Shown piece after piece: positions 10,762-46,412 of a DNA stretch of 64,000 bases (its first letter is position 1; every line of letters starts with the position of its first letter). Under the pieces are notes generated by a model that saw only the letters and a list, made by a program, of their open reading frames with translations, did no database searches and was not told where the DNA came from. Location: NCBI GenBank assembly GCA_003524085.1, contig DOEC01000006.1, positions 1,146 to 65,145 of the forward strand, in the 5' to 3' direction. Origin of the DNA: Bacillota bacterium (GTDB lineage: Bacteria; Bacillota_I; Bacilli_A; RF39; UBA660). A program made the position numbers and the translations under genes.

Positions 10762-10847
10762 AAGACACCCCTTATCTAGTTAAAATTATACCATATTTTG
10801 TACAATATGTCAACTTTACACATAAAGGTACTTTATTTGAATATGAT

Positions 10848-10931
10848 TAATTTATGATAATTCTTAGCTGCTACTTTAGCATTTTCATTTATTATTTCAG
10901 TCTTTATATTACTTAAATATTTTTCTTCCAT
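10848..10931 (-). pseudogene. 5' remnant (~28 codons) of a fourth tandem DUF1016 paralog, truncated
   Basis: DNA at 10858-10931 is homologous to the first ~75 nt of the DUF1016 copies (MEEKYLSNIKTEIINENAKVAAKNY...), then reads into unrelated sequence and a stop. The same RBS junction (CCTCCT) is found between copies. Confidence 0.6.
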
Positions 10932-10943: not shown

Positions 10944-11852
10944 CTAACTAATTTGCACAGTTTTATTTATTTTAAATTCTACTATAGTTACTTGATTATC
11001 TTTTACGTAATGAGCTTCAAACTTATTTACTGACTTTGTTATAATTATTCCAATAGTACTATTTTGAGTTATATTTTTTAAGTGTTCGTCAATATAGTTC
11101 ATATACGTTTTTATTTGACCATAGTCACTTTTCTTATATTCTCTTGATTTTATCTCTACTACACAATATCTACTTTCAACCACATTATAAAATAGATAGT
11201 CTATATAATTCTTTTTGTCTCCAATGTTAAGTTTATATTCTCTTCCGACGTAAAAATATCCACCGCCTAATTGTTTCATAAAACTATCTAAGTTTTCATA
11301 AATAATTTCTTGTAATATTTTTTCAGTATAAACTTCATAACTTTTATTAGGTGTTAACACTATTGGACTGGGGACACTTTGAATTAAAGAAAGTTCTTCT
11401 TTATTTAAAAGACTTTCTTTTGCTTCAGTTGAGAGTCTACCATACTCATTACTCTTTATTCTTTCAGCTAATGCTCTTTTACTTAAATTATCTCGTTTAG
11501 TAATATGAATATAATACTTAATTTCTTTGATATCTCTTAGTGATAATAAAATCTTGTAATGACTCCACGTCAATTGTCGCTCCAGTGGAGCGACTTTTTG
11601 AATTAATAAATAAAATTGTTGTATCTTATATAAATCTTTTTCCTTATATCCACTTCCAAATTCCTTAGTTAAAATACTTGCATATTTTTTTACTATTCCT
11701 TCTCCATAGTGTTTACCTGCTTCTACTAGTTCCCTTCCTATATTATAATTCATTGTAAGTTTTACATTATTTATCTGATAATTCTTAGCTACTACTTTAG
11801 CATTTCCATTTATTATTTCAGTCTTTATATTACTTAAATATTCGTCTATCAT
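10944..11852 (-). CDS. DUF1016/YhcG-family PD-(D/E)xK nuclease-like protein, tandem copy 1
   Basis: N-terminal YhcG-like block (NYNIGRELVEAGKHYGEGIVKKYA...QLTWSHY). C-terminal PD-(D/E)xK core (IDYLFYN...CVVEIKSREYKKSDYGQ). Confidence 0.7.
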   Translation of the reverse strand: MIDEYLSNIKTEIINGNAKVVAKNYQINNVKLTMNYNIGRELVEAGKHYGEGIVKKYASILTKEFGSGYKEKDLYKIQQFYLLIQKVAPLERQLTWSHYKILLSLRDIKEIKYYIHITKRDNLSKRALAERIKSNEYGRLSTEAKESLLNKEELSLIQSVPSPIVLTPNKSYEVYTEKILQEIIYENLDSFMKQLGGGYFYVGREYKLNIGDKKNYIDYLFYNVVESRYCVVEIKSREYKKSDYGQIKTYMNYIDEHLKNITQNSTIGIIITKSVNKFEAHYVKDNQVTIVEFKINKTVQIS

Positions 11853-11864: not shown

Positions 11865-12773
11865 CTAACTAATTTGCACAGTTTTGTTTATTTTAAATTC
11901 TACTATAGTTACTTGATTATCTTTTACATAATGTGCTTCAAACTTGTTTACTGATTTTGTTATAATTATTCCAATAGTATTATTTTGAGTTATATTTTTT
12001 AAGTGTTCGTCAATGTAGTTCATATACGTTTTTATTTGACCATAATCGCTTTTTCTATATTCTCTTGCTTTTATTTCAACTACACAATATCTACTGTCAA
12101 CTACATTATAAAATAGATAATCTATATAATTCTTTTTGTCTCCAATGTTAAGTTTATATTCCCTACCAATAAAAGCGTAGCCTCCACCAAGTTGATGCAT
12201 AAAATCTTCTATATTTTCAAAGATTATTTCTTGTAATATTTTTTCAGTATAAACTTTATAACTTTTATTAGATGTCAACACTATTGGACTTGGGACACTT
12301 TGAATTAAAGAAAGTTCTTCTTTATTTAAAAGACTTTCTTTTGTTCCATCTGAAAGTCTATCATACTCATCACTTCTTATTATTTCAGCTAATTTTCTAT
12401 AACTTAAATTATCTCTTATAGAAATATTAGTATAATAATTGATTTTATTGATATCTTTTAAAGGTAAAAGTAATCTTATGTGTTCCCAAGTCAATTGGTG
12501 CGGCAATGCCGCACCTTTTTCAAAAAGAACATAAAATTGACGCATTCTCTTTAAATTAGATACAGAATATCCACTTCCAAATTCCTTAGTTAAAATACTT
12601 GCATATTTTTTTACTATTCCTTCTCCATAGTGTTTACCTGCTTCTACTAGTTTCCTTCCTATATTATAATTCATTGTAAGTTTTACATTATTTATCTGAT
12701 AATTCTTAGCTGCTACTTTAGCATTTCCATTTATTATTTCAGTCTTTATATTACTTAAATATTCGTCTATCAT
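11865..12773 (-). CDS. DUF1016/YhcG-family PD-(D/E)xK nuclease-like protein, tandem copy 2
   Basis: Over 85% identical to copy 1, with 12-nt intergenic gaps; differences are concentrated in aa ~68-130. Confidence 0.7.
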   Translation of the reverse strand: MIDEYLSNIKTEIINGNAKVAAKNYQINNVKLTMNYNIGRKLVEAGKHYGEGIVKKYASILTKEFGSGYSVSNLKRMRQFYVLFEKGAALPHQLTWEHIRLLLPLKDINKINYYTNISIRDNLSYRKLAEIIRSDEYDRLSDGTKESLLNKEELSLIQSVPSPIVLTSNKSYKVYTEKILQEIIFENIEDFMHQLGGGYAFIGREYKLNIGDKKNYIDYLFYNVVDSRYCVVEIKAREYRKSDYGQIKTYMNYIDEHLKNITQNNTIGIIITKSVNKFEAHYVKDNQVTIVEFKINKTVQIS

Positions 12774-12785: not shown

Positions 12786-13694
12786 CTAACTAATTTGCAC
12801 AGTTTTGTTTATTTTAAATCCTACTATAGTTACTTGATTATCTTTTACATAATGAGCTTCAAACTTATTTACTGATTTTGTTATAATTATTCCAATAGTA
12901 CTATTTTGAGTTATAGTTTTCAAGTGTTCGTCAATGTAGTTCATATACGTTTTTATTTGGCCATAATCGCTTTTCTTATACTCTCTTACTTTTATTTCAA
13001 CTACACAAAAACAGTTCATTTTGTAATTGTATAAAAGATAGTCTATATAATTCTTTTTATCTCCAATATTGAGTTTATATTCTCTACCAATAAAAGAGTA
13101 TTCTCCACCAAGTTGATGCATAAAATCTTCTATATTTTCAAATATTATTTCTTGTAATATCTTCTCATTATAAAATTCATAGCTTTTATTTGGTGTCAAT
13201 ACTATCGGACTGGGTATGCTTTGAATTATTGAAAGCTCTTCTTTGTTTAAAATACCCTCTTTCGTTTCAGTTGAAAGTCTGCCATACTCATTACTTCTTA
13301 TTCTTTCAGCCAATGCTCTTTTGCTTAAATTATCTCGTTTAGTAATACTAATATAATACTTGATTTCTTCTACATTTTTTAATGGTAAAAGTAATTTATA
13401 ATGAGACCAAGTCAAAAGTTGCCCCACTGGAGCAACTTTTTGACTTAAATCATAAAATTGCTTCATTCTTGTTAATTCTGTAAAAGTATATCCCTTACCA
13501 AATTCTACCGTTAATTCCTTTGCATATTTTTTTACTATTCCTTCTCCATAATGTTTACCAGCTTCTGCTAGTTCCTTACCAATATTATAGTTCATTGTAA
13601 GTTTTACATTGTTTATCTGATAATTTTTAGCTATTACTTTAGCATTACCATTTATTATTTCATTCTTTATATTTTCTAAATAATTGTCTATCAT
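12786..13694 (-). CDS. DUF1016/YhcG-family PD-(D/E)xK nuclease-like protein, tandem copy 3
   Basis: As copy 2. Confidence 0.7.
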   Translation of the reverse strand: MIDNYLENIKNEIINGNAKVIAKNYQINNVKLTMNYNIGKELAEAGKHYGEGIVKKYAKELTVEFGKGYTFTELTRMKQFYDLSQKVAPVGQLLTWSHYKLLLPLKNVEEIKYYISITKRDNLSKRALAERIRSNEYGRLSTETKEGILNKEELSIIQSIPSPIVLTPNKSYEFYNEKILQEIIFENIEDFMHQLGGEYSFIGREYKLNIGDKKNYIDYLLYNYKMNCFCVVEIKVREYKKSDYGQIKTYMNYIDEHLKTITQNSTIGIIITKSVNKFEAHYVKDNQVTIVGFKINKTVQIS

Positions 13695-13702: not shown

Positions 13703-13777
13703 CCTCCTAATATATTTATTCGACAAAAAACGCGAAAAGTCTTTTTTTTATTTTGACTTTACGCGAAATTCGACGTG
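13703..13777. repeat. 75-bp leader/promoter block, copy A (direct repeat partner at 26208-26281)
   Basis: cctcctaatatatttattcgacaaaaaacgcgaaaagtctttttttt...acgcgaaattcgacgtg is about 90% identical to 26208-26281. Contains an imperfect inverted repeat CGCGAAAAGTC...GACTTTACGCG. Confidence 0.8.
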
Positions 13778-13864
13778 TTTTTTTACATGTTTTGTGTAAA
13801 CTAAGTTATAAAAAAAGAAAGGATAAACAACTTATAAAAGCTATTTGCTCCTTCCCCATAAAAA

Positions 13865-13900
13865 TTGATGCTTTAGCAAAAGTAAGCATCAATTATTTTT
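13865..13900 (-). terminator. rho-independent terminator downstream of the arc operon transporter gene
   Basis: 9-bp stem TTGATGCTT/AAGCATCAA, flanked by an A-run on plus (U-run on the minus transcript) and a T-run on plus, so possibly bidirectional. Confidence 0.6.
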
Positions 13901-13925
13901 TATTTTTTTTTGATTATTTGATTTT

Positions 13926-15368
13926 TTAAACAATTGAGAATAACATCAATACTAAAATGTTTACTATTGCAATTGTTATAACTACTTTTAATGCCCATTT
14001 GAACCAAGTTGAATAGTCTACTTTAGCAAGAGCAAGTCCTCCCATTATTGCTCCACAAGTTGGAGTTATTAAGTTTACTAATCCATTTGCACTTACAATA
14101 GTCATAGCCGCTACTTCAGTTGAATAACCTAAGCTTGCAGCAAGTGGTCCAGTTATTGGAGTTGAAAGTGTTGCAAGTCCACTACTTGATGGTACTAAGA
14201 ATGATAACACTATATGTAGTAAGTAGTTTAGTGGAACGAATACTAATTCTGGTAGTTTACTTAAATGTTCAGTTGCATTATAAATAATGTAATTGTCTAA
14301 GTAAGTTTGTTTCATTAATACAGAAGCTCCTCTTGCTACTGCTATTACTAAGATAACACCTATCATATCTTTTGTTCCATCAATAAATGTATCTACAAAC
14401 TCTTTTTCTTTGTAACCATTGATTAAAGATATTACTATACTCATTAAGAAGAACCAAAGTGCAGACTCGTAGAAGTACCAGTTACCTAAACTAGAGCCTG
14501 TAAGCCATCCAGTAAATCCATCAAAGAAAGTTATGTCAAATTCTCCCCATGGAATAAATCCTATAATCATTATTAAGAATGTTAAAGCAAAAACACATAA
14601 AGTTATTTTTTGTTTTGTAGTTAAAACTTCTTTTTGCTTTGATTTTTCCTCAAATTTACCAAATTCTTTTTCAGCTTCTTCTTGCTCTCTTAAAGAAAGT
14701 ATAGTTGAACCTTTATCTTTTTTAACTTTACTTGCATAAGCTAACACAAACAATGTTGATATTAGGTAAGCTAATAACCATAAGATTATGCCTATAAATA
14801 ATACAGTTCCTTGATTATATTCTACACCAGCTGCTCTTAAAGCAGATAATACAGCTCCTGTTGCAAATGGGTTAACTGTTGAACCAAGAACACCAGTACC
14901 AGCACCTAATAAAACTACTGCTGCACCTACAAGTGGGTCCATTCCTGCGGCAAACATCGTAGCTGCTAGAAGTACGTAGAAGCCAACTGTTTCTTCAAGC
15001 ATTCCATATGTTGTACCACAAATTGAGAAGATAAACATTAATATTGGTATTAACCATAATTCTTTACCTTTTAATTTTTGTACTAAAACTTTGATACCTG
15101 TTTCTAAAGCCTTAGTTTTGTCTATTATTTTAAGGAATCCTCCTAAAATAAGTACGAATATTGCAACATCTACAGCATTTTCAAATCCCAATATTGGTGC
15201 TAGTAAGATTTGGCTTAATTTAGCCCCTACTGTACCACTTCCATTTACTATTTCTTCACCAACGAATTTAGCATCTGGTAGTAAATGTGAAAGAATTCCA
15301 AGTACTACTATAACTATCATTATAATAGTATATGCTGATAACATGCTTCTATTCTTTTTCTTTGTCAT
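13926..15368 (-). CDS. YfcC/DcuC-like membrane transporter (putative arginine/ornithine antiporter of the ADI operon)
   Basis: Polytopic protein with YfcC-family signatures (NPF, YASKVKK); last gene of the arc operon. Confidence 0.55.
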   Translation of the reverse strand: MTKKKNRSMLSAYTIIMIVIVVLGILSHLLPDAKFVGEEIVNGSGTVGAKLSQILLAPILGFENAVDVAIFVLILGGFLKIIDKTKALETGIKVLVQKLKGKELWLIPILMFIFSICGTTYGMLEETVGFYVLLAATMFAAGMDPLVGAAVVLLGAGTGVLGSTVNPFATGAVLSALRAAGVEYNQGTVLFIGIILWLLAYLISTLFVLAYASKVKKDKGSTILSLREQEEAEKEFGKFEEKSKQKEVLTTKQKITLCVFALTFLIMIIGFIPWGEFDITFFDGFTGWLTGSSLGNWYFYESALWFFLMSIVISLINGYKEKEFVDTFIDGTKDMIGVILVIAVARGASVLMKQTYLDNYIIYNATEHLSKLPELVFVPLNYLLHIVLSFLVPSSSGLATLSTPITGPLAASLGYSTEVAAMTIVSANGLVNLITPTCGAIMGGLALAKVDYSTWFKWALKVVITIAIVNILVLMLFSIV

Positions 15369-15369
15369 A

Positions 15370-16305
15370 TTATTTTCCTCCTTTTATGACTGTACCATTT
15401 TTATATTCTAATGCGTCACTAGCGCATTCTAGCGATGTAATTATTGCAGTTTTATTTCTGTTTTCTACAAAATTTATACATGCTTCTATTTTAGGCAGCA
15501 TACTTCCAGGAGCAAACTGGTTATCACTTATATACTTTCTTGCTTCTTCTACTGTGATAGTATCTAACCCAGTCATATTTTCTTTATTGTAGTTTAAGTA
15601 TACTTTATCAACAGCAGTTAATATAAGTAACACATCAGCATCTACTTCTTTAGCAAGTAAACTAGCTGACTTATCTTTATCAATTACTGCATCTACTCCT
15701 TTTAGAAGATTATTTTCCATTATAACTGGAACTCCTCCACCTCCAGCACATATAACAATTACATCATCTTCAACAAGTTTTTTTATAACTTTGTCATTTA
15801 GTATTTTTTTAGGTATAGGAGATGGTACTACTCTTCTATATCCACGGCCTGCGTCTTCTTTAAAAATGTAACCTTTTTCACTTTCTATTACACTGGCTTC
15901 TTCTTTAGTGTAAAACATTCCAATAGGTTTAGTAGGATTTTTAAAACATCCATCATTTTTATCAACTAAGACCTCTGTTATTAAGGCTACTATAGATTTG
16001 TCAATGTCTCTTTTGTTTAGTTCATTCATTATTGACTGTTCTATATGGTAACCAATATAACCTTCACTCATACTACCACACTCTGCAAATGGCATTGATG
16101 GAGTAGCAGCACTTCCATTACTAGCATACTCCATTGCAAGAGAGATTTGCCCAACTTGCGGTCCATTTCCATGTGTAAGTATTACTTTGTTACCTTTTTC
16201 TATAAGGTCCACTATTACTTTAGAAACACCCTCTAGAATAGATAATTGTTCACTAGGAGTCTTCCCTAGAGCATTTCCTCCTAGAGCTATAACTATTTTA
16301 CTCAT
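15370..16305 (-). CDS. arcC: carbamate kinase
   Basis: [14 protein letters not shown]... family signature; operon context. Confidence 0.85.
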   Translation of the reverse strand: MSKIVIALGGNALGKTPSEQLSILEGVSKVIVDLIEKGNKVILTHGNGPQVGQISLAMEYASNGSAATPSMPFAECGSMSEGYIGYHIEQSIMNELNKRDIDKSIVALITEVLVDKNDGCFKNPTKPIGMFYTKEEASVIESEKGYIFKEDAGRGYRRVVPSPIPKKILNDKVIKKLVEDDVIVICAGGGGVPVIMENNLLKGVDAVIDKDKSASLLAKEVDADVLLILTAVDKVYLNYNKENMTGLDTITVEEARKYISDNQFAPGSMLPKIEACINFVENRNKTAIITSLECASDALEYKNGTVIKGGK

Positions 16306-17297
16306 TACTCTTCCCTCATTGTTAGATATATTACAGCTTTAATTGTATGTAATCTATTTTCAGCTTCATCAAATACTTTTGATTTTGGACTATTAAATAC
16401 TTCGTCAGTTACTTCCATTTCTTTTAGACCAAATTTTTCATATATCTCTTTTCCAATTGTTGTATTTAAATCATGAAATGATGGTAAGCAGTGTAAAAAT
16501 ATTGCGTTTTCGCTTGCATTTGACATAACACTCATGTTTACTTGATATGGACTAAGTAATTTAATACGACTAGCCCATACTTCATCTGCTTCTCCCATTG
16601 AAACCCATACGTCAGTATATATTACGTCAGCACTCTTAGTAGCAACATTTACGTCTTCTTCTAAAGTTATAGTACACCCATTAGTACTAGCAATTTCCTT
16701 ACAAGTATTAACTAACTCTTCTTGTGGCCATAATTCACGTGGAGCACATGCTACAAAGTTTATTCCCATTTTAGCACATACTACCATAAGTGAATTTGCA
16801 ACGTTGTTTCTAGCATCTCCCATAAATACTAACTTTAAGCCCTTTAAATATCCAAAGTTTTCTTCAATAGTCATAATATCTGCAAGCATTTGTGTTGGAT
16901 GAAATTCTGTTGTAAGTCCGTTCCATACAGGTACTCCAGCATTTTTGGCTAACTCTTCTACTATTGTTTGACTGTATCCACGATATTCTATTCCATCATA
17001 CATTCTACCTAATACTTTAGCAGTATCAGCAATACTTTCTTTTTTACCCATTTGACTAGCATTAGGATCTAAATACGTCACTCCCATACCAAGGTCAAGT
17101 GCAGCAACTTCAAAAGCACATCTTGTTCTAGTTGAAGTTTTTTCAAATAAAAGTACAATGTTTTTATTTGGTAAATATTTATGTTCAATATGTAATTTCT
17201 TTTTTTCTTTAAAATCTTTAGATATGTCTAGTAAAAACCTTATTTCTTCAGGTGTATAATCTAATAATTTTAAGAAATGTCTTCCTGTTAAATCCAT
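16305..17297 (-). CDS. arcB: ornithine carbamoyltransferase (catabolic)
   Basis: STRTRCAFE and HCLP motifs. Confidence 0.9.
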
Positions 17298-18541
17298 TAT
17301 ATATCCTCCCTAACTAGTGGCATACTCATACATCTTGGGCCACCTCTTCCACGTGATAATTCAGCACTTGGCATTTCAAGAACTTTTATTCCGTGTTCTC
17401 TTAGTATATTGTTAGTCATGTTGTTTCTATCGTATACTACTACTACACCAGGCGCTATACAAAGAGTGTTTGTTCCGTCATTCCATTGTTCTCTTTCACT
17501 AGATATTTTTTCTCCTCCAGCACATGGAATAAGTGTAATTTTCTTTCCAAGATATTTTTCTAATATTTCTTCTAAACTACCTTCTACTTTTTTAACATTT
17601 AAGTCTTCAAATGTAGTTGGATCATCTCCTTCAGTAATTTCGTAAACTTCTAGAGTGTTCATTATTCCTGGATGGTATGTAAACTTATCATAATCTATTT
17701 GTGTAAATACAGTGTCTAAATGCATAAATGCACGACTTTCTGGTATTTTGAAAGATAGTACTGTTTCTACTTCACAAGTAGGTTCTTTAAATAAGTTTTT
17801 AGCAAGTTCATCAATTGCGGCAGGCTCTGTTCTTTGTGAGATACCTACAGCAATAACTTTATTACTTATGTTTAATACGTCTCCACCTTCAATGTGGTAA
17901 GGTAGGTTTCTACTATAGTACCTTTTTACTTTACCCTTGAAGTCAGGATGATACTTGAATATAAAGTCAGCATATATAGTTTCTCTATTTCTAGTAACTG
18001 AATACATTCTATTTAGTATTGCCCCGTTACCACAGCTTGCGAATGGGTCTCTTGTAAAGTAGAGGTTTGGTATTGGGTCAGCTAAGAAGTCACTCTCATC
18101 ACTTACAAAGTCAACTAAGCTTTTTTCTACTTCTCTTTTTCTTAATGGTATTTCTTCTATTTTTATACCACTCATTGTTTTTAATACTAATTCTTTTTTA
18201 TCAGTAAAGCTATGTAAGTAGTCATATACTAGAGTTCTATATTTAGGAGTAGTTATTCCAGCTTCATAGATAAATTCTTTTAGAAATTCGTCTAGTATTT
18301 CTTCACTAATACTTAATACTTCACTAACTAGGTCTTCTAGATATACTACTTCTATACCATTTTCTTTTAGAATTCTTGCGAATTCGTCGTGTTCAGCTTG
18401 CGCGACTGGTAAGAAAGGTATATCATCAAATAAAAGTCTTCCTAATGTATCTGGAGTTAGATTAAGCAGTTCATTTCCAGGTCTATGAAGAAGTACTTTC
18501 TTAAGTGGACCTATTTCACTTTTAACATTAATTCCTTGCAT
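17297..18541 (-). CDS. arcA: arginine deiminase
   Basis: [22 protein letters not shown]..., 414 aa. Confidence 0.9.
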
Positions 18542-18908
18542 AAATCATTTCCTTTCTTTTGTAGTGTTCCTACTATAATAAGTATACCAGTAAAACTTAA
18601 GTTTTTCAACTAAAAAAACATATAAACTATTATTAATTTATATATTTTAATTTTAAATTATTTATTATATTAATGCACTCTGTAAGTTGACAAGAAGTTT
18701 TCTTTTTTCTTACAAAACGCAAGAAAGAAAGACGTCTATCTGTTAGTATTAAGATAAATGTTAACAAATAACCAAAGATTGGCGTCTAATCACTAAACGT
18801 TCCTTACGTTTATATTGTATACTATTTTTTGTTTTATGCAAGTATTTTTACTATTATGTTAATTATTTCATCTTTCATTGCATTGTAATTTAAATCATGA
18901 TGTTTATG

Positions 18909-19310
18909 TTATACTACTACATAACAATAATTATCTACTAGTCCAATAATTATATGCACTTGTTCATTAATATGATATTCATTAAATCCATTATTTAAAA
19001 GTATTGTACTTATTTTTTCAGTTATCAATTGTTCTCTACTTTTAAATATATCACTTATTTCTGGGTCTAAGTGACTCATTGCCATTAATTCTTCGTGAGC
19101 TTCTTTTTTTATATTGTGTACACTAATAAACTTTTCTATTATTTTACTTAGTAGTAAATTAATACTAGTTTTATCAATTATTACATTGTCTATTATATCT
19201 ATCATTGGAAACATTATTTTATCAGTATAATCTTTTACTCCATGAATAAATATTTCTCTTTTATCTTTAAAATACTGATATATTATTCCAGTAGAAAAAC
19301 GTGCATATTT
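18909..19310 (-). pseudogene. TetR/AcrR-family regulator lacking a start codon (5'-truncated remnant?)
   Basis: TetR HTH (VTCVDIAKYARFSTGIIYQYFKDKREIF) is in frame upstream of the ORF-track start at 19214, but the frame hits a stop at about 19311 with no ATG/GTG/TTG before the HTH. Confidence 0.4.
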
Positions 19311-19413
19311 CGCAATATCAACACATGTTACATTATGGTAAGCTTTTTAACACATTAATAAAAAACCTTTTTCAATAATTGTTTTTTTCTTTTTTATTTA
19401 AGTCTTTTTTATA

Positions 19414-19437
19414 GGTTCATGTACATTCATATGAACC
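19414..19437. promoter_or_regulatory. inverted repeat GGTTCAT-N10-ATGAACC (possible TetR-type operator; not a canonical terminator)
   Basis: Read directly; there is no U-run in either transcript orientation. Confidence 0.25.
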
Positions 19438-19440
19438 TCC

Positions 19441-20370
19441 TTATATTTTAGTATAGCATTTGGTTTTCAAAAAACTTTTAATTTCTTTTATATTTTTACT
19501 TTCATAATAATTAATTAAAAGAAGTTTAAATTCATCAGTTAATTCTGAAGGTATACTAATTATTCCTAAACCATTTTTAATAAGATAATGATTAGCAAAT
19601 ATAACTGCAGTTCTTTTGTTACCATCTACATATATTTGTTTTTTCATCGTATATAAAAGTAGTTCTATTGCTTTGTCAACTTTATTATTTTTTTTATTTA
19701 TAATTTTGTTAAGTTCGTCTTTAACATCACTTTCAATGGGTATACCAGGCATCCAAGAAGTTCCACCTATTTTAACTGGAACGCTTCTTATTTTGCCAGC
19801 TGTGCTATAAAATCCTTCTATACATAGTTTATTAATTTCACAAAGTAAATTATAGTCTGTTGGTGAAAGTAATACTCCTTCACTTAGAACAAATTCCCAT
19901 GCATGTTTTAAATCAAGAACTTTTAAAACGTCAGTAGAAGATATTCCACTTACTTCCCCACCTTCAATTATTGTTTCAGTAAGAGCAAAAGTTGTTGATA
20001 TTCCTTCTAAGACTGCTTGTTTGTAAATTGTATCAACTAAATTTCTTTTTGCAAAGTCAACATTTAATTTAACTTTATCGCTAAGAACAAAATTATCTAC
20101 ATTTTCTTCTTTTAAAATATTATTTAATCTTTTTATCTCTTTTTTTAATTCTTTAACTTTTATATTATTATTTAGTATTAGGTTATATAATTCATCACTA
20201 TATTCTCCTACATATCTACTTATTAGTTTTCCATTATCTCTATAGTGAACATAAATATATTTATTACATTCCTTATCTCTAACTTCAATTGAGCCATGTA
20301 TAATAGAAGAAACTTGAGTTTCTAATCTTTTTTTATCATCTAACATACCAATTAATTCAACATTTTTCAT
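19441..20370 (-). CDS. Fic/Doc-family-like protein with non-canonical motif (QIYVDGNKR instead of HxFxDGN(G/K)R)
   Basis: Has the Fic-fold pattern G.IR.VPV.IGG...P and then DGNKRTAVIFANHYL, but the catalytic His position is Gln. Confidence 0.45.
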   Translation of the reverse strand: MKNVELIGMLDDKKRLETQVSSIIHGSIEVRDKECNKYIYVHYRDNGKLISRYVGEYSDELYNLILNNNIKVKELKKEIKRLNNILKEENVDNFVLSDKVKLNVDFAKRNLVDTIYKQAVLEGISTTFALTETIIEGGEVSGISSTDVLKVLDLKHAWEFVLSEGVLLSPTDYNLLCEINKLCIEGFYSTAGKIRSVPVKIGGTSWMPGIPIESDVKDELNKIINKKNNKVDKAIELLLYTMKKQIYVDGNKRTAVIFANHYLIKNGLGIISIPSELTDEFKLLLINYYESKNIKEIKSFLKTKCYTKI

Positions 20371-20469
20371 ACTATATCTCCTTTATATACATTATAACAC
20401 ACCTTTAAAAAAATGTGAAACATTTTAAGTGTTTTTTCACTGATTTTGTTTCACATTTTGTTATACTAA

Positions 20470-21480
20470 TTATTTATTACTTTTTATTTCATTAACTAAG
20501 TCTTTAATTGTATATTTAATACTTCTTGTTTGATAATCTAAATCTTTTTTTGCTTTAGCATTTGTAAAGTTAGAATTAGCATTTAATGTATACAATGAAT
20601 ACCTAGTAAATAATGGTGTTGTTTTTCTAAGTCTATAATATAATTCAAATAAAAACGCAATATTTTTAACCATGTTTATTGAAATAACTTTTTTTATTGG
20701 TTTAGCTTTTCCATACTCACAAACCAAATCAGCTATTTTTTTAATAGTTACATATTCACCTGATAAAATATATCCTTCTCCTTTTTTACCTTTAGTACAA
20801 GCATTAATAACACCTCTAGCAACATCTCTTACATCAACAAAGTCATACCCACCCTCAGTTAATAAAGGAACTTTTTCATTTAAGATTTTTTTTATTAAAA
20901 CTGTCATATTAGTATTGGTAAAATCATTTACCCCTAATAAACCTGAGGGGAAAACAACACAAGCATTTAAATTATTGTTTTTAACTTCATTAAATACATA
21001 CCTAGTTGTTTCAGCTTTAGTCTTTGCATATAAACCAACAATTTTATTTGGATCAAAACTTGCATTTTCATCCATTACTTCATGATTTAATTTTTCTTCT
21101 ATTGCATGTACACTACTAACATAGATTAGTTTAGCATTTATTTCTTTGGCTTTTTTTATAATGTTTTTAGTACCTTCAACATTAACTTGATATACTCTTT
21201 CGTTATATTTACTATCAAGGTATACTATTGAAGCACAATGAATAACATAAATATTTGTTTTTTCTTTAACACTTTCATCAATATTAAATATATCCTTTAA
21301 TGTTTCTATCTTTGTTACATCACCAAGGAATTTTTCGCATTTAAGCCCTTTAAGAGCATCTATTTTATCGTTAGGCAAAACTAATGCTCTTATTTCATTT
21401 TCATTATTTTTTTCTAGTAACCTTACAATATTATTTCCAAGAAAGCCATTAGCGCCTGTTATTATATAAATATTTTTCAT
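20470..21480 (-). CDS. NAD-dependent epimerase/dehydratase (extended SDR) family protein
   Basis: N-terminal ITGANGFLG Rossmann motif. Confidence 0.65.
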   Translation of the reverse strand: MKNIYIITGANGFLGNNIVRLLEKNNENEIRALVLPNDKIDALKGLKCEKFLGDVTKIETLKDIFNIDESVKEKTNIYVIHCASIVYLDSKYNERVYQVNVEGTKNIIKKAKEINAKLIYVSSVHAIEEKLNHEVMDENASFDPNKIVGLYAKTKAETTRYVFNEVKNNNLNACVVFPSGLLGVNDFTNTNMTVLIKKILNEKVPLLTEGGYDFVDVRDVARGVINACTKGKKGEGYILSGEYVTIKKIADLVCEYGKAKPIKKVISINMVKNIAFLFELYYRLRKTTPLFTRYSLYTLNANSNFTNAKAKKDLDYQTRSIKYTIKDLVNEIKSNK

Positions 21481-21641
21481 ATATTACACCACCATTTCCT
21501 TATAAATTTTTCTAGAAATACCACCCCATCATAGTGTTCTTGTTCAAATATTAGTAATATATTTGAAATCTATTATTTAAATTCTTAGTAGACCTTTATA
21601 ACCAATTTAATATACAATATTTATTATTACACGTATTTTAT

Positions 21642-22364
21642 TTACCTTTTATGACTTTTCATAAAATCTTTTATTCTTTTATTTTTAGTTGTTTTTAATT
21701 CTTCACTTGTTCCATTAAATATAATATTACCATTTTCTAAAAACAATACTCTCGTTGATACTTCAGTTACAAATCTCATTTCATGACTTACTATAATAAG
21801 AGTCATTTTTTTATTTGCAAGTTCTTTTATTAAATCAAGTACCTCTTTTACCATTTCCGGATCAAGCGCACTAGTGGGTTCATCAAACAAGATTACTTCA
21901 GGTTTCATAATTAATGCTCTTACTATTGCTACTCTTTGTTTTTGACCACCTGAAAGTTCAGATGGATACGCATCTTTCTTATCAAGTAAACCAACACTTT
22001 CTAAAAGTTTTAATGCTTCACTAGTAGATTTTCCTTTACTCATAATTTTTAAATTTATAGGTGCTAAAGTAATGTTTTCTAATACTGTTAAATGTGGAAA
22101 CAAGTTAAAACTTTGAAATACCATACCCATTTTTTCTCTTACATGACTTACATTAATATTGTTTTTAGTTATATCCACTTTATGAAAAAGTATTGTTCCA
22201 TCATCAGGCTTTTCTAATAAATTTAAACATCTTAAAAGTGTTGATTTACCACATCCACTTGGACCAATTATACTTATAACATCTCCCTTTTTAACATCAA
22301 AAGAGACACCTTTTAGTACTTCTAAAGAACCAAAGCTTTTCTTCAAATTCTTAATTTTTAGCAT
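21642..22364 (-). CDS. polar amino-acid ABC transporter ATP-binding protein
   Basis: Walker A GPSGCGKST, ABC signature LSGGQKQRV, Walker B ILFDEPTSALD. Confidence 0.85.
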   Translation of the reverse strand: MLKIKNLKKSFGSLEVLKGVSFDVKKGDVISIIGPSGCGKSTLLRCLNLLEKPDDGTILFHKVDITKNNINVSHVREKMGMVFQSFNLFPHLTVLENITLAPINLKIMSKGKSTSEALKLLESVGLLDKKDAYPSELSGGQKQRVAIVRALIMKPEVILFDEPTSALDPEMVKEVLDLIKELANKKMTLIIVSHEMRFVTEVSTRVLFLENGNIIFNGTSEELKTTKNKRIKDFMKSHKR

Positions 22365-23031
22365 TGTTTAGTCTCCTTTCCATTAGGTTTACTAATTTAG
22401 AAAGACCTAAAGTCATTATTAAATATATTATTGCTACAATTATAAGTGGGAAAAAGTAGTCATATGTTCTAGAAGAAATTATGTCCGAAGCTTTTGTTAG
22501 TTCTAAAATTCCAATATATGCTCCTACTGATGTTTCTTTTAAAAGTGTTATAAACTCATTACCTAATGCTGGAAGTATATTTTTTATAGCTTGTGGCAAG
22601 ATTATTAACTTCATAGTCTTATGATAGTTTAATCCTAAACTTAAACCTGCTTCTAATTGTCCGTTGTCTATGCTATTAATTCCAGAACGGATTATTTCAC
22701 TTACATAAGCACCCGAATTTATTCCAAAAGCTATTATCCCAACTAATGTTATATTAATGTTTACACTTTTAAATATTACATAATAGATTATCATTAACTG
22801 AAGTATTACTGGAGTTCCCCTTATTACATTAACATAAATTTCACATATTTTATTTAATATTTTTCCTTTTTTATTTACTTCATAATTATTTCTTATTAAT
22901 GAGACTAACGTTCCAATTATTATACCTATTATAACAGCAAAAAAAGCAATTATAACTGTAGTTGTTAATCCACTCAAAATATATTTATATCTATCATCTA
23001 CAATTAATGTTTTATATAAACTATCTTTCAC
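22351..23031 (-). CDS. amino-acid ABC transporter permease
   Basis: HisM/GlnP-like TM protein with an EAA-like loop; overlaps the ATPase gene start. Confidence 0.75.
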   Translation of the reverse strand: MKDSLYKTLIVDDRYKYILSGLTTTVIIAFFAVIIGIIIGTLVSLIRNNYEVNKKGKILNKICEIYVNVIRGTPVILQLMIIYYVIFKSVNINITLVGIIAFGINSGAYVSEIIRSGINSIDNGQLEAGLSLGLNYHKTMKLIILPQAIKNILPALGNEFITLLKETSVGAYIGILELTKASDIISSRTYDYFFPLIIVAIIYLIMTLGLSKLVNLMERRLNNAKN

Positions 23032-23044
23032 TCTTTACTCCTTT

Positions 23045-23761
23045 TTATTTTGTATGATTAATTATATATTCTTCTATTTTCCCACTACTTTTTAACTCTT
23101 CTAAACACTCATTAATACTATTAAGTAATTCAGTATTTCCTTTTCTAACTATCATTCCATAAGAGTCAGTTACTAAGTAACCTGGTAATATTTTAAGTTC
23201 TGTATTTTCTTTTACAATTTCTTTAGCTGGTAACTCATCCATAACTAGTACAGTAACTTTTCCTCTTTTTAAGTCCTCTACTGCACTTAAATATTTCTTT
23301 TGTCTTACTATTTCAGTATCTTTAAAGTTTTTTGTTACATAAGAGTCAGCAATTGTACCTAGTTGTACTGCAATTTTTTCTTTTGAAATATTGTTTATAC
23401 TTTCTATATTGCTATCAGTTTTCACTAATACAACCTGTTTAGATGTAACATAATTTATGCTAAAGTCTACTTCTTCGTCTCTTTCAGGAGTATAACTAAT
23501 TCCTGCTGCAGCAAAGTCTGCCTTTTTAGTTTTCACTTCATTTATAAGTGAGTCAAAAGCCACATCCTTAATTACTAATTTCTTGTTTAATTTTTCAGCA
23601 ATATATTTAGCTATGTCAACATCTACTCCTACAATTTCCCCGTTTTCATAATATTCATAAGGAGCAAAACCTGCTTCTGTAACCATTACTAATTCATCAC
23701 TATTTTTAGTACATCCACATAGAATAAAAGTTATAACAATTAACACAAAAATTTTTTTCAT
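23045..23761 (-). CDS. amino-acid ABC transporter substrate-binding lipoprotein
   Basis: Lipobox LCGC and an SBP_bac_3-like sequence. Confidence 0.75.
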   Translation of the reverse strand: MKKIFVLIVITFILCGCTKNSDELVMVTEAGFAPYEYYENGEIVGVDVDIAKYIAEKLNKKLVIKDVAFDSLINEVKTKKADFAAAGISYTPERDEEVDFSINYVTSKQVVLVKTDSNIESINNISKEKIAVQLGTIADSYVTKNFKDTEIVRQKKYLSAVEDLKRGKVTVLVMDELPAKEIVKENTELKILPGYLVTDSYGMIVRKGNTELLNSINECLEELKSSGKIEEYIINHTK

Positions 23762-23835
23762 AATATACCTACTTTCTTAATAATAAATATACCACAAATT
23801 AGTTTCTTTTACAATAAAAAAAGTTAGACTTAACA

Positions 23836-25266
23836 CTAACTTTCTATATATTTTCCATTTAAGCTAAAACTATGAGCTTCAGTAATTATAACATCTACTA
23901 TTTGTCCGATTAAATCTTTATCACTTTCAATATTAACTAGCTTCATATTTTCAGTATATCCCATGTATTTTTTAGGATCTTTTTCGCTTGGAGAAACAAC
24001 TAGGCATTTAACAACTTTATCTACCATTTTTAAGTTACTCTCTAGGCTATATTTATTTACTAGTTCATTTAATTTGTATAGTCTACTTTCTTTTTCTTCT
24101 TTTGGAGTATCATCAGGTAGTTTCATAGCTGGTGTACCCACTCTTGGACTAAATATAAATGTGAAAGCTCCATCAAATTTGCAAGTGTTTACTACGTCAA
24201 GTGTCTCATTAAAATCACTTTCTGTTTCGCCTGGAAATCCAACTATTATATCAGTTGTTATACTTACACCTTTTACTTTAGTTCTTATTTTGTTATATAA
24301 AGTAAGATACTCTTCTTTTGTATACTTTCTTCCCATAAGTTTTAATATTCTATCGCTTCCACTTTGAATTGGTAAGTGCACGTATGGCATAACGTTATCA
24401 TATTTACTTATCACATCTATCATTTCATCAGTAAAGTCCCAAGGATGTGACGTAACAAACCTAATTCTCTCAATATTAGTTTTTGCTACATCTATAAGCA
24501 AGTTTGCTAAAGTATAGTCTTCATACAAGTCTTTTCCATAAGCGTTTACGTTTTGTCCAAGAAGAGTTACTTCTTTGTAGCCTTCACTTTTAAGTTTTTT
24601 TATTTCTTTAATGATGCTTTCCTTTTTTCTACTTCTTTGAGTACCTCTAGTGTAAGGGACTATACAGTATGTACAGAATTTATCACAACCTAATTGTATA
24701 TCTACCCATGCAGAATACTTGCTTTCTCTTTTTTCAGGTATTCCCTCACATATATTACCTTCTATACTATATACTTCTACGTTTTGTTTACCAGTTTTTA
24801 TAGAGTTATTTATTACATTAACCATATTATCTAAGTTGTGTGTTCCAAATACAAAGTCTACATATTTATATTTAGACATAATTTCATTTACTACACTTTC
24901 TTCTTGAGCCATACATCCACATATTCCAAGTAGTATATCATGATTTTCTTTTAATTTTTTAACTAGACCTAGAAAACCAAAGACTTTGTCATGGGCATTT
25001 TCTCTAATAGCACAGGTGTTTAAAATAACTATGCTTGCTTCTTCAATATTGTCAGTTTCAACCATTCCATTTTGTGATAATACTCCTTTTACTCTTTCTC
25101 CATCGTGGACGTTCATTTGACATCCATAAGTTCTTACATAGTATTTTTTCCCTATTAAACTTTCATCTAAACTTACATCTTTATATTCATAATTTATTGG
25201 TTTACTATTGTTTCTTTTTTTTGCTTCTAACATATTAGGTACTTGCATAAATTCACTTCCTTTCAA
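23836..25266 (-). CDS. miaB: tRNA-i6A37 methylthiotransferase MiaB (radical SAM + TRAM)
   Basis: YVRTYGCQMNVHDGE in the N-terminal MTTase domain, radical-SAM CxxxCxxC (CDKFCTYC), and a C-terminal TRAM domain. Confidence 0.8.
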   Translation of the reverse strand: MKGSEFMQVPNMLEAKKRNNSKPINYEYKDVSLDESLIGKKYYVRTYGCQMNVHDGERVKGVLSQNGMVETDNIEEASIVILNTCAIRENAHDKVFGFLGLVKKLKENHDILLGICGCMAQEESVVNEIMSKYKYVDFVFGTHNLDNMVNVINNSIKTGKQNVEVYSIEGNICEGIPEKRESKYSAWVDIQLGCDKFCTYCIVPYTRGTQRSRKKESIIKEIKKLKSEGYKEVTLLGQNVNAYGKDLYEDYTLANLLIDVAKTNIERIRFVTSHPWDFTDEMIDVISKYDNVMPYVHLPIQSGSDRILKLMGRKYTKEEYLTLYNKIRTKVKGVSITTDIIVGFPGETESDFNETLDVVNTCKFDGAFTFIFSPRVGTPAMKLPDDTPKEEKESRLYKLNELVNKYSLESNLKMVDKVVKCLVVSPSEKDPKKYMGYTENMKLVNIESDKDLIGQIVDVIITEAHSFSLNGKYIES

Positions 25267-25454
25267 GTAGTTACAAATATATCACTAAATGTGGTTATTG
25301 TCAATTATTTTAGGTGTTTTATAAGTTACAAAATTAAGTGAATTCATTGGAAAACCTTTAACAAAACTAAAGGCAGCTAAATCTTTGATTTCTGTCAAAA
25401 AGGTGTGACAGTTTCGCACTTTTTTGAAAACATCTTATATGAGCCATTTAAATT

Positions 25455-25480
25455 TCCAACCACTGGTTGGAATTTTTTTG
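25455..25480 (+). terminator. perfect 9-1-9 hairpin TTCCAACCA-C-TGGTTGGAA followed by TTTTTTTG (terminator-like; possible 3' end of a small plus-strand transcript)
   Basis: Read directly. It has the same CCA-N-TGG core architecture as the intragenic palindromes of the DUF1016 copies. A TTGTCA-17-TATAAG promoter-like site lies ~160 bp upstream. Confidence 0.4.
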
Positions 25481-25604
25481 AAATTTGTTAGATGGTATTA
25501 TTATAGTACTAGGTACCATTTCTTTTGCTTGAGTTTCTGTTTTTTTCTTTTAATTTGATTTCTTGTTTTCAAAGATAATTTATCGTATTCATTAATTTTT
25601 ATTT

Positions 25605-25997
25605 TTTTCTCTAAGTGCACGCTCACTTAAATTACCTCGTTTAAGTTATATTAATGTAATACTTGATTTCTCCTAAGTTTTTTAAAGGTAAAAGTAATTT
25701 ATAATGTGACCAAGTCAATTGGTCATCCAATGGATGACCTTTTTCAATAAAATTATGGAATAATCTCATGTATTTAAGATTTGTAATCCCGTAATTTGTA
25801 CCAAATTCTTTTGTTAATTCTTTTGCATACTTTTTAACTATACCTTCGCCGTAGTGTTTACCAGCTTCTGCTAATTCCTTTCCAATATTATAATTCATTG
25901 TTAGTTTTACATTGTTTATCTGATAATTCTTAACTATTAATTTAGCATTACCATTTATTATTTCACTCCTTATATTCTCTAAATAATTTTCTTCCAT
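25605..25997 (-). pseudogene. decayed DUF1016/YhcG paralog (copy 4), truncated at 118 codons with in-frame stops
   Basis: The N-terminal 118 aa are ~80% identical to copies 1-3. Where copy 3 has AAA, an in-frame TAA occurs (…KYYINIT*), more stops follow, and homology is lost near 25605. Confidence 0.7.
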
Positions 25998-26207
25998 GAT
26001 TACATCCTTTCACCATTACAATTGCGTCTGTTTTAAATCTAGTGACAAAAATATTTTGTTTTAATATTCACGTATGTTTTCAAAATTAGTTTTCTCATAT
26101 TTTAAATATGAAATATAAACTTAGATAAATTCTTAATAAGAAATCTACTAGTTATCTTAAAAAATAATCTCATAATTTACTCTCCTTTCTAGGAAAGGCT
26201 TTTTAAC

Positions 26208-26281
26208 CCTCCTAATATATTTATTCGACAAAAAACGTGAAAAGCCTTTTTTTATTTTAACTTTACGCGAAATTTAACGTG
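26208..26281. repeat. 75-bp leader/promoter block, copy B (direct repeat partner of 13703-13777)
   Basis: See copy A. Here it lies ~210 bp upstream of the decayed copy 4. Confidence 0.8.
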
Positions 26282-26371
26282 AAATTTTACACAAAAATGT
26301 AAAATTTACTAGTGTTTTTATCATTGTCACTTAGTTGTCACTTTATATGTGATAAAATGACATAAATTTAG

Positions 26372-26400
26372 TTGATAAGTAAATTGATTTTTGCTATAAT
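26372..26400 (+). promoter_or_regulatory. sigma-A-type promoter TTGATA-17-TATAAT for the dlt-like operon
   Basis: Read directly, 30 bp upstream of the RBS AAGGAAG. Confidence 0.55.
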
Positions 26401-26429: not shown

Positions 26430-27926
26430 ATGAAACAAGTATTAGAATATTTAGAAAAAAATGACAAAAATAAAACAGCAGTTATATGTGAAAATGAATC
26501 TATTACATATGAAGAGTTAATTAGTAAATCCAAACTAGTTGGGTCTAACCTTATAAATAAAGTTAAAATTAATGAACCAGTAATAGTTTTTATGGATAAA
26601 GGTATAACTACACTAGAAGTATTTTTTGGTATTTTATATAGTGGTGGGTGTTATAGTTTAGTAAATCCAGAGTTTCCTCAAAATAGAATTAAATCTATTT
26701 TAAATACTCTTGAAGCAAAATGCGTTATTACAAATATAGAAAACTATGAAAAAGCTAAAGAAGTTTTTAATGGAATAAATATAATTAAGTGTGAAGATTT
26801 AGTTAGTGGTAGTATTTTAGAAAGTGAATTAGAAAACATTAGAAGATCTAAACTAGACATAGACCCAGTATATATTAATTTTACAAGTGGTAGTACTGGG
26901 GTACCAAAAGGTGTTGTAGTAAGTAATAGAAGTATAATTGATTTTATTGATGTATTTACTAACCTATTTGATATTAAAGAAAGTGACATAATTGCAAACC
27001 AAGCACCATTTGATTTTGATGTTTCAGTAAAAGACATCTATAGCGCACTTTGTAAAGGTTCTACTTTGTTAATAGTACCAAAGAAATTATTTAGTAGTCC
27101 TGCTAATTTGCTTGATTACTTAGTTATAAACAACGCTACTACACTTATCTGGGCAGTCAGTGCATTATGTTTAATTACTACATTCCACGGCCTAGACTAC
27201 AAAGTTCCAACAAGTGTTAACAAAATAATCTATAGTGGTGAAGTAATGCCTCTTAAACACTTGAAAATATGGATGGATAAATTACCTAATGTAAGAGTAA
27301 TTAACGTATATGGTCCAACTGAAATAACTTGTAATTGTACATATCATGAAGTTGACAGAAGTAGAACTTATGTAGAAAATATTCCTATTGGTAAAAGTTT
27401 TCCTAATGAAAAAGTTTTCTTACTTGATGAAGAAAACAAACTAGTTAATACTCCTAATATTTCTGGAGAAATATGTGTAAGTGGAACTTGTCTTAGTTTA
27501 GGATACTATAATAATAAAGAAGTTACAGATAAAGTATTTATGCAAAACCCACTAAACAATAAATACATTGAACCTATTTATAAAACTGGAGACCTAGCAA
27601 TGTATGATGAAAATATGGACTTGTTTTTTAAAGGAAGAAAAGACTTTCAAATTAAATATATGGGCCACAGAATAGAGCTTGAAGAAATAGACACAGAAGT
27701 ACTTAAGTTAGATGGTGTTAAAAGATGTCTCACATTATTTGATGAAAAGAAAAGTAAACTTTGGTGTTTCTATGTAGGAGAAGTTACTAAAGAGGATATT
27801 ATATCTTTCTTAAAAGTAAATGTTCCAGAATACATGGTGCCTACTAAGTATGTTAAGTTAGAAGAGTTTACTCTTACTAAAAATGGTAAAATAGATAGAA
27901 ATGTATTAAAGGAGATGATTAAATGA
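26430..27926 (+). CDS. DltA-like amino acid--carrier protein ligase (adenylation enzyme)
   Basis: FTSGSTGVPKG, NQAPFDFDVSVKDIY, GRKDFQIKYMGHRIELEEID and TKNGKIDR blocks, colinear with DltA. Confidence 0.8.
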   Translation: MKQVLEYLEKNDKNKTAVICENESITYEELISKSKLVGSNLINKVKINEPVIVFMDKGITTLEVFFGILYSGGCYSLVNPEFPQNRIKSILNTLEAKCVITNIENYEKAKEVFNGINIIKCEDLVSGSILESELENIRRSKLDIDPVYINFTSGSTGVPKGVVVSNRSIIDFIDVFTNLFDIKESDIIANQAPFDFDVSVKDIYSALCKGSTLLIVPKKLFSSPANLLDYLVINNATTLIWAVSALCLITTFHGLDYKVPTSVNKIIYSGEVMPLKHLKIWMDKLPNVRVINVYGPTEITCNCTYHEVDRSRTYVENIPIGKSFPNEKVFLLDEENKLVNTPNISGEICVSGTCLSLGYYNNKEVTDKVFMQNPLNNKYIEPIYKTGDLAMYDENMDLFFKGRKDFQIKYMGHRIELEEIDTEVLKLDGVKRCLTLFDEKKSKLWCFYVGEVTKEDIISFLKVNVPEYMVPTKYVKLEEFTLTKNGKIDRNVLKEMIK

Positions 27927-29083: not shown

Positions 29084-29084
29084 A

Positions 29085-29315: not shown

Positions 29316-29317
29316 TT

Positions 29318-30883: not shown

Positions 30884-30894
30884 GAGGTAATGTT

Positions 30895-46207: not shown

Positions 46208-46212
46208 ATAAA

Positions 46213-46408: not shown

Positions 46409-46412
46409 ACAA

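Follow-up and report, generated by a model that had tools for sequence, protein, structure and literature searches.

Direct repeats around a cluster of metabolic genes raise the question of whether the DNA between them arrived, or can leave, as a unit. We addressed this question for a 64-kb stretch of contig DOEC01000006.1 (assembly GCA_003524085.1; the whole stretch is referred to here as the window), in which two similar leader sequences, each associated with a DUF1016/YhcG locus, bracket a 12.5-kb segment that carries the arginine deiminase (arc) operon. The host belongs to an uncultured, spore-forming human-gut lineage of Bacillota with a GC content of 27%. A first-pass annotation had proposed that an insertion split an older, longer DUF1016 array and that homologous recombination between the repeats could delete or duplicate the segment. 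Our analysis leads to a different answer: the two repeats are very probably the common leaders of two separate, strain-variable DUF1016/YhcG arrays that flank ordinary chromosome.

Two leader-headed DUF1016/YhcG loci

Using BLAST, we found that the sequences at 13703-13787 and 26208-26291 form a same-strand direct repeat, with 76/85 identities (89%), one gap, and an E value of 3e-23, in agreement with the ~90% identity and shared orientation first reported for them. Perfect identity extends over at most 30 nt (CGTTTTTTGTCGAATAAATATATTAGGAGG in the gene sense). A covariance model trained on 12 leader variants and used for scanning the window returned exactly two copies per 64 kb, both on the minus strand (E values of 1e-19 for copy 1 and 4e-18 for copy 2), and the sequence/structure model gives a leader length of ~100 nt. 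Leader 1 (13703..13803, minus strand) immediately precedes the first DUF1016 gene in array 1, and leader 2 (26208..26306, minus strand) is the same ~100-nt block at the head of array 2. Pfam assignments confirmed that both leaders head DUF1016 loci, as had been noticed before.

Array 1 (10.8-13.8 kb) consists of three intact genes encoding 302-aa proteins with DUF1016_N and YhcG_C domains, followed by a stub, with a period of 921 bp and 12-nt spacers. Leader 1 abuts the ATG of the first gene, copy 1 (12786..13694, minus strand). Copy 2 (11865..12773) begins 12 nt from copy 1 and is followed by copy 3 (10944..11852); a 32-codon stub of a fourth copy (10833..10931) closes the array, all on the same minus strand. 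The 32-aa stub gene is called in all strains, and the repeat family of array 1 reaches position 10855. Short, with its genes head to tail and 12-nt spacers between them, each array looks like an operon.

To place the second locus, we compared the window with human-gut metagenome contigs whose flanking proteins are 98 to 100% identical to those of the window; these contigs, gathered via exact-protein look-ups and a leader-pattern scan, were treated as the same species. About 40 of them cross one or both leader junctions, and at least 3 span both leaders (L004/L011, L035/L048, and L044/L046). Since the index of the metagenome collection lists one marker protein in 3977 blocks and one conspecific contig is 1.2 Mb long (ERZ28757677:contig_6994), the species is very prevalent in the human gut and is found in thousands of gut metagenome assemblies.

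Locus 2 (25.5-26.3 kb) is dead in the window strain, and its gene is intact in conspecific strains. What remains is an array 2 remnant (25480..25997, minus strand), in which a 118-aa open reading frame (ORF; 25641-25997) representing the 5' third of the gene is joined to the tail end of a truncated copy located downstream. By BLAST, homology between copy 1 and this remnant runs into the coding sequence (389/525 nt, or 74%, with frameshifts); ~180 nt of 5' coding sequence is 87% identical between the loci. Strain L029, whose flanks are 99% identical to those of the window, carries an intact locus-2 gene and then a remnant, and the window's fragment shares 99% identity with the first 118 residues of the intact product. 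Up to ...GAAATCAAGTATTACATTAATATAAC, the window sequence agrees with the intact L029 gene at 100%; beyond that point, it agrees with the downstream remnant at 100%. Because the match switches from intact gene to remnant across a 26-nt stretch that the two share in L029 (25645..25670, minus strand), the fragment arose by deletion: a short-homology event removed ~705 bp, with the crossover within 25645-25655, inside the 11- to 26-nt shared stretch, and killed the only intact gene of array 2 in the window strain.

Among conspecific strains, the commonest state of locus 2 is an intact gene of 302 or 308 aa plus a truncated copy of 175 aa; rarer states are frameshifted versions, a 134-aa form, and the 118-aa form of the window. 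Two locus-2 allele classes share only ~64% identity, and their flanks are 97 to 99% identical. Between leader 2 and the gene lies a locus-specific spacer of ~200 bp (25998..26207, minus strand) that holds a small hairpin and is kept in every conspecific locus-2 variant; its final ~35 nt look like an array copy at its 3' end, junction included. The spacer also contains a 23-codon ORF (MRLFFKITSRFLIKNLSKFIFHI) behind a strong ribosome-binding site (RBS), 98 to 100% conserved in all conspecific strains, which could encode a small peptide or be mere AT-rich noise. Leader 2 faces away from the gene on its other side, which encodes an AMP-binding enzyme and has its own near-consensus promoter at 26372-26400. 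The coding homology beyond the leader, the ~200-bp spacer, and the fourth-copy stub in array 1 had all been missed in the first-pass annotation.

The chromosome between the leaders

The genes between the arrays (13926..25266, minus strand) encode a YfcC-type carrier, ArcC, ArcB, ArcA, a TetR pseudogene product, a motif-less Fic protein, an SDR epimerase, the ATPase, permease, and binding protein of an ABC transporter, and a MiaB-family enzyme. Pfam searches supported the inventory given earlier and refined it: the carrier is of the YfcC/DcuC type, the MiaB-family protein is a radical-SAM enzyme, and the amino-acid ABC transporter comprises three genes. The TetR pseudogene has an in-frame stop ahead of the helix-turn-helix region, and the Fic protein lacks the HxFx(D/E)GNGR motif, having YVDGNKRT instead. 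The Fic and SDR genes (19441-21480) have the lowest GC content at third codon positions (GC3) in the window, 0.10 to 0.11, and in a sister species the Fic gene is broken into pieces of 83 and 103 aa (L052:2012-2942); the Fic gene seems to be on its way out.

If the segment had been inserted, a foreign signature in its composition might be expected, and inspection of GC skew and codon usage had been suggested as a check. Segment genes show GC3 values of 0.10 to 0.18 and codon-usage distances of 0.13 to 0.26, within the range of the window's other 40 genes. The arc genes have a GC content of 0.31 to 0.33, somewhat above that of their neighbors. GC skew shows no break or step across the segment, codon usage is native, and no foreign signature emerged. 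Pfam searches of all ORFs from 13.9 to 25.3 kb and the flanks revealed no integrase, recombinase, or transposase.

Gene order was the same in all informative conspecific contigs: the dlt-like operon that contains the AMP-binding gene, leader 2, DUF1016 locus 2, the MiaB-family gene, the ABC transporter, sdr, fic, (the TetR pseudogene), arcABC, yfcC, leader 1, array 1, a 268-aa ORF, spoIIGA, and sigE. There was no presence/absence polymorphism of the segment; every informative conspecific contig has it in the same order. Segment deletion or duplication was seen in 0 of the ~40 junction-crossing conspecific contigs, including the 1.2-Mb contig and the at least 3 contigs spanning both leaders. 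No direct junction of the AMP-binding side with array 1, or of yfcC with the locus-2 spacer, occurred in any conspecific contig, and no hybrid leader sequence occurred among the closest strains at either leader. What differs among strains is array content only: copy number at locus 1 and gene state and allele class at locus 2. Given the constant order in all contigs, the in-range codon usage and GC3, and the absence of a skew break, the segment is ordinary resident chromosome, native and stable, and neither an inserted nor an excisable island. Weighing against this conclusion, consensus metagenome assemblies would miss rare deletions of the 12.5 kb in a subpopulation.

We extended the comparison to a sister species, represented by Hadza-derived assemblies (the metagenome-assembled genome [MAG] CAKOIS01 and a 702-kb contig) with flanking proteins 94 to 99% identical to those of the window. 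Arrays stand at the same two places, and the total of leader-headed DUF1016 loci is at least three. Locus 2, directly upstream of miaB, comprises a decayed copy and two or more intact ones; a single leader-headed DUF1016 gene lies downstream of yfcC; and a third leader-headed DUF1016 gene lies between topA and cotE. The same leader, 90 to 98% identical, heads DUF1016 genes in the sister MAG (by yfcC and at the topA-cotE site) and in another MAG. The sister species has extra genes, including genes inside the segment: next to array 1 lie, on the upstream side, two ORFs of 119 and 332 aa in L052 and one 501-aa ORF in L023 and, on the downstream side, genes for TetR, MMPL, and an 857-aa protein. 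Its homology to the window breaks inside the segment, between the ABC ATPase gene and sdr. Given these differences, the 12.5-kb segment is not a single unit of inheritance. One further contig, L032 (ERZ779851 NODE_5252; 6x coverage), has a window-type yfcC end and leader 1 (93%) on one side and, on the other, a DUF1016 gene with a downstream flank, both of which match Clostridium sp. CAG:628 at 97.6% identity. It is a probable assembly chimera or an uninterpretable interspecies recombinant and was not used.

These comparisons bear directly on the proposal that the 12.5-kb arginine deiminase segment inserted into one long DUF1016 array and split it, with the repeats marking the two halves. Two DUF1016 loci in the same orientation with similar leaders, and the somewhat higher GC content of the arc genes, are what such an event might leave. 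However, splitting predicts one leader, on the upstream piece only, whereas both pieces have a leader and their own truncated terminal copy. The sister species shows the same two-array layout, with intact genes at locus 2; backbone genes (the MiaB-family gene and the ABC transporter) have native GC3 and codon usage; and the segment lacks an integrase or transposase and does not hold together as one unit in the sister species. We therefore consider an insertion extremely improbable, and the synteny with relatives, which had been named as a check, removes support from the insertion and deletion scenario.

A related proposal is that the leaders act as recombination sites, making the segment from the arginine deiminase genes to miaB excisable or amplifiable by RecA-dependent deletion or duplication. 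The leaders offer a plausible substrate (85 nt at 89% identity with a perfect block of 30 nt, plus ~180 nt of 5' coding sequence at 87%), and the host demonstrably deletes across stretches as short as 11 to 26 nt. Nevertheless, no recombinant junction was found in the ~40 junction-spanning contigs from many samples, neither leader is a hybrid among the closest strains, and deletion would cost the arc operon, the ABC transporter, and the MiaB-family gene. This proposal is highly improbable in our judgment. The part of the recombination claim that survives concerns short-range events within arrays, namely, copy-number change, mosaic formation, and the 705-bp deletion; segment deletion or duplication was not seen.

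Islands bounded by att-type repeats offer a superficial parallel, as here too direct repeats in the same orientation surround a multigene segment with accessory-looking genes (the motif-less Fic gene and the TetR pseudogene). In contrast with such islands, this locus has no integrase or recombinase, no presence/absence polymorphism, native composition, and backbone genes, and it is differently interrupted in the sister species; moreover, the repeats are gene leaders and not tRNA or att fragments. The arginine deiminase region is thus stable backbone, and no island, excision, or amplification story should rest on the repeats.

We propose instead that the lineage carries a lineage-specific, multilocus family of DUF1016/YhcG proteins of the PD-(D/E)XK type in short arrays, which in the window share an orientation and have 12 kb of ordinary chromosome between them. 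Each array has one conserved leader of ~100 nt at its head and a truncated copy at its end. Because leader-headed DUF1016 loci occur at at least three sites in the sister species, we infer that leader and gene were duplicated or dispersed as a unit, which would account for the repeats.

DUF1016/YhcG proteins and their alleles

The three 302-aa products of array 1 match DUF1016_N (PF17761) at 88 to 96 bits and YhcG_C (PF06250) at 101 to 108 bits, with gathering cutoffs of ~33 (for copy 1, E values of 7.8e-25 and 5.5e-31, respectively); the 118-aa fragment of locus 2 matches PF17761 only. PADLOC models identify the proteins, near full length, as PDC-S02, a phage defence candidate (E values of 2e-54 to 4e-56; 2e-54 for copy 1). 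The closest reference for the query gene is from an "uncultured Bacilli bacterium" (81% protein identity), and another relative is from "Clostridium sp. CAG:628" (79%). Residues D218 (in NYIDYL) and E233-I-K235 (in VVEIK) are invariant in 20 aligned alleles, and we infer that these D...E-x-K residues are catalytic. What these proteins share with the DUF1016/YhcG PD-(D/E)XK family is that both Pfam domains and the PDC-S02 models are matched over the full length and that all copies have the D...E-x-K core (IDYL...VEIK).

Judged from these matches, the proteins are probably DNA-targeting nucleases with a defence-type role. DUF1016 genes have been found enriched beside programmed-inversion targets and inside type I restriction-modification loci (PMC9881135). 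Whereas the genes described in that study are single genes inside restriction-modification or defence islands, those described here form leader-headed tandem arrays among housekeeping genes. Two points count against a defence role: no anti-phage activity of PDC-S02 is reported in the literature that we searched, and the arrays do not lie within a recognizable defence island. A sequence search of the PDB with the DUF1016 protein gave no match. Structure prediction for copy 1 from a 20-sequence alignment (mean predicted local distance difference test score [pLDDT], 52.5; predicted template modeling score [pTM], 0.33) was too poor for a fold search. Neither the leader nor the DUF1016 protein matched viral contigs, and the leader did not match plasmids.

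Copy number at locus 1 varies among strains. Three intact copies are present in L001, L002, L004, L005, L008-L010, and L049; two in L003, L006, L007, L048, and L051; and one in L031, while in L050 the first array-1 copy is frameshifted. Tandem gene arrays expand and contract by unequal crossing-over, and this locus resembles arrays of that kind in its exact 921-bp period, in the occurrence of one, two, or three copies among strains with 98 to 100% identical flanks, in its truncated terminal copies, and in the deletion between array members. The copy-number differences would arise from unequal crossing-over. Unlike the products of recent simple amplification, the copies are only 80 to 93% identical and keep a deeply diverged central segment, and for this reason we do not regard the arrays as recently amplified.

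Variation among alleles is concentrated in residues ~65 to 120 of the N-terminal domain (~55 residues), where mean pairwise identity is 0.55 to 0.69, versus 0.8 to 0.98 elsewhere. The ratio of nonsynonymous to synonymous substitution rates (dN/dS) is 0.26 over codons 1 to 64, 0.48 over codons 65 to 120, where dS is raised too, and 0.15 over codons 121 to 302. Diversifying selection in codons 65 to 120 was considered and rejected: the ratio of 0.48 is raised but remains below 1, and with dS also increased the values point to old divergence shielded from conversion. A comparison of copies 2 and 3 illustrates the pattern, with a dS of 0 over codons 1 to 64 and of 0.83 over codons 65 to 120. The locus-2 allele of L029 has a 5' end like that of copy 1 and a 3' end like that of copy 3, and it shares only 64% identity with the common locus-2 allele. 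In public data, the 302-aa alleles form more than 120 distinct clusters at 90% identity, and they are 80 to 98% identical. The mosaic alleles are consistent with gene conversion among copies and loci, and the pattern suggests that the ends of the family are homogenized by gene conversion while a diverse central segment persists. That segment is probably specificity determining. Taken together, the arrays would evolve by unequal crossing-over, which changes copy number; by gene conversion, which yields mosaics; and by short-homology deletion, as at locus 2.

Other paralogous families combine a shared upstream block with diverging coding regions, including Borrelia erp/mlp-type paralogues with their "upstream homology box" and Neisseria opa genes with their conserved leaders. 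Like these, the family described here has a 5' block of ~100 nt that is more conserved than the genes, several chromosomal sites, and mosaic alleles. Unlike them, it encodes cytoplasmic, nuclease-type products and not surface antigens, its genes form tandem operon-like arrays, and no phase-variation repeat or invertase was seen. The feature adds to the known examples of tandem paralogue families that are dispersed and share a conserved leader, the gene in this case being a candidate defence nuclease. As a candidate of this type, DUF1016/YhcG (PDC-S02) is widespread, and the locus supplies a starting set for tests of specificity and regulation: close alleles that differ mainly in ~55 residues, variants with one, two, or three copies, a natural knockout at locus 2, and a conserved leader.

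Leader structure, possible function, and other features of the window

From its 5' edge in the gene sense, leader 1 contains a palindrome, TTTACA-N7-TGTAAA (13782-13800), and then a hairpin (13731-13765) formed by CGCGTAAAGTC, a 13-nt A-rich loop, and GACTTTTCGCG and followed by TTTTTT (UUUUUU in RNA). Next to the U-run on its 3' side is an invariant block, TGTCGAATAAATATATT, and then AGGAGG (13703-13708), 8 nt ahead of the ATG. The imperfect inverted repeat that had been pointed out within the leader, and that may or may not be an operator as suggested there, corresponds to the arms of this hairpin, CGCGAAAAGTC (13731-13741) and GACTTTACGCG (13755-13765). In copy 1, 10 of 11 positions pair (-10.9 kcal/mol), with four G-C pairs at the base of the stem and UUUUUU directly after it. 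In leader 2 of the window strain, the repeat is degraded: three changes weaken the hairpin to -4.1 kcal/mol, with changes in the 3' arm (GGCTTTTCACG), and the AGGAGG has no start codon behind it. Leader 1 as a whole folds better than shuffled sequences (z = -2.8), and the window's leader 2 does not. Across strains, the weakest leader-2 hairpins (-4.1 and -1.4 kcal/mol) occur where the locus-2 gene is dead; in the remaining strains, mostly with an intact locus-2 gene, values are -6.8 or -8.9 kcal/mol. This relationship is only a hint that the hairpin matters, as the dead-gene strains represent one or two lineages. The final 28 nt of the leader are invariant in 14/14 variants, with coding sequence only 80 to 90% identical; the invariance is partly circular, since a 22-nt pattern from the same leader core served to collect the variants.

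The palindrome is inverted between the copies, such that the reverse complement of 13782-13800 equals 26288-26305 save for one base, and at other leader loci the palindrome loop is found in either of the two orientations. The inversion looks like a hairpin "flip" or template-switch mutation.

What might the leader do? One possibility, which we hold with somewhat less than even confidence, is that it carries an RBS and a core promoter or 5' untranslated region, with a hairpin that insulates or attenuates transcription. The hairpin and U-run may halt read-through from co-oriented upstream genes, or they may attenuate. Several results detract from this possibility. A sigma-70 scan found no convincing promoter inside the conserved block, and for that reason the promoter/terminator assignment is a guess. 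A terminator scan did not call the hairpin because of its 13-nt loop. A covariation test of the two leader hairpins gave compensatory changes at 0/16 pairs, the sequences being too similar to decide; only one-sided changes were seen in the stem, and these preserve G-U pairs in the gene sense. In Rfam 15, the leader had no match at the gathering score (best E values of 0.4 to 3.7), and only tRNAs were found in the window. A sigma-H promoter was also considered on the basis of a by-eye fit (GTCGAAT with a -35 element having one or two mismatches; consensus, RNAGGAWWW-N11-12-RNNGAAT); it was not adopted because the distant DUF1016 leaders L022 and L026 do not keep the motif. Both leaders contain an exact TGTCGAA, which we take to be the heptamer of the Spo0A box (0A box). 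This heptamer occurs nowhere else in the window, where 2 copies were found versus 2.9 expected, i.e., with no enrichment.

Outside the DUF1016 loci, a near-identical leader, about 92 to 95% identical to leader 1 and extending up to the ATG, heads a gene for a 677-aa C39-peptidase ABC exporter in contigs L030, L036 (as an example, L036:1358-3498), L039, L040, and L041, and a 5'-truncated version is present in a sixth contig, L038. An ATP-grasp protein is encoded upstream of the exporter, and FemAB, two Big_2 proteins, dnaG, and sigA lie downstream. Peptide export, of a bacteriocin or other ribosomally synthesized and posttranslationally modified peptide (RiPP), may be under the same leader at this locus. 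A second protein search did not tie the exporter contigs to the window species; only short contigs carry the exporter gene.

The exporter copies show that the leader is not strictly part of a DUF1016 gene, which tells against a unit of leader plus gene, and the block may be a more general regulatory module. Taken further, the leader could be an autonomous, portable cis-regulatory cassette (a terminator, promoter, RBS, or small intergenic repeat) whose spread or recruitment does not depend on DUF1016 and which brings unrelated genes under shared control. Along with the exporter copies, the 28-nt core, invariant in a sample that is in part circular while coding sequence is 80 to 90% identical, would fit such a cassette, as would the TGTCGAA within that core, confined in the window to the two leaders. 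On the other hand, the leader occurs only twice in 64 kb, and no further copies were found in ~180 kb of related loci; a covariance-model search for diverged copies gave only chance-level matches at RBS-like sites. We saw neither terminal repeats nor target duplications, every nonexporter copy stands ahead of a DUF1016 gene, the exporter contigs are not tied to the window genome by species, TGTCGAA is not enriched, and the leader is not recognizable upstream of the 79 to 83% identical CAG:628 genes. We regard a free-standing cassette as unlikely and favor leaders that belong to the DUF1016/YhcG arrays. It is similarly doubtful, though worth stating as speculation, that the shared leader is a cis-regulatory module through which one control circuit, possibly acting at stationary phase or the onset of sporulation via TGTCGAA/GTCGAAT, would govern several polymorphic DUF1016 arrays and the C39-peptidase exporter; the arrays would then serve as a cassette store, with gene conversion between loci and strains circulating nuclease specificities.

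The remainder of the window contains four further features. At 63380-64000 (minus strand), two repeat copies probably form the template/variable pair of a diversity-generating retroelement. The template-like copy A (63413-63495) is rich in A (AAC AAC AAC AAC), and copy B (63830-63912) belongs to an ORF cut off by the end of the window (...WYWASGNVYLDYRRVRPA...). Over 147 nt, 27/47 mismatches fall at an A of copy A, both copies end in an identical GCCGTGCGTCCCGCCA, and the local GC content is 40 to 50%, versus 27% for the genome; the adjoining 1.4 kb showed no reverse transcriptase gene. Twelve tRNA genes are clustered at 46134-47224 (minus strand), with a local GC peak of 0.47, and a single tRNA gene is located at 39311-39384 (plus strand). 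An intergenic 23-bp tandem repeat (CTTAAAATCTTACGGTT plus a 6-nt spacer) at 2662-2747 has at least 3.7 copies. Finally, the dlt-like operon next to leader 2 (26430-31818, plus strand) encodes an AMP-binding enzyme, a pyridoxal phosphate-dependent decarboxylase of the ornithine/diaminopimelate type, a carrier protein of 76 to 81 aa, an MBOAT acyltransferase, and a 307-aa protein; the decarboxylase is an unusual member, at the place expected for small DltX/DltB-type partners.

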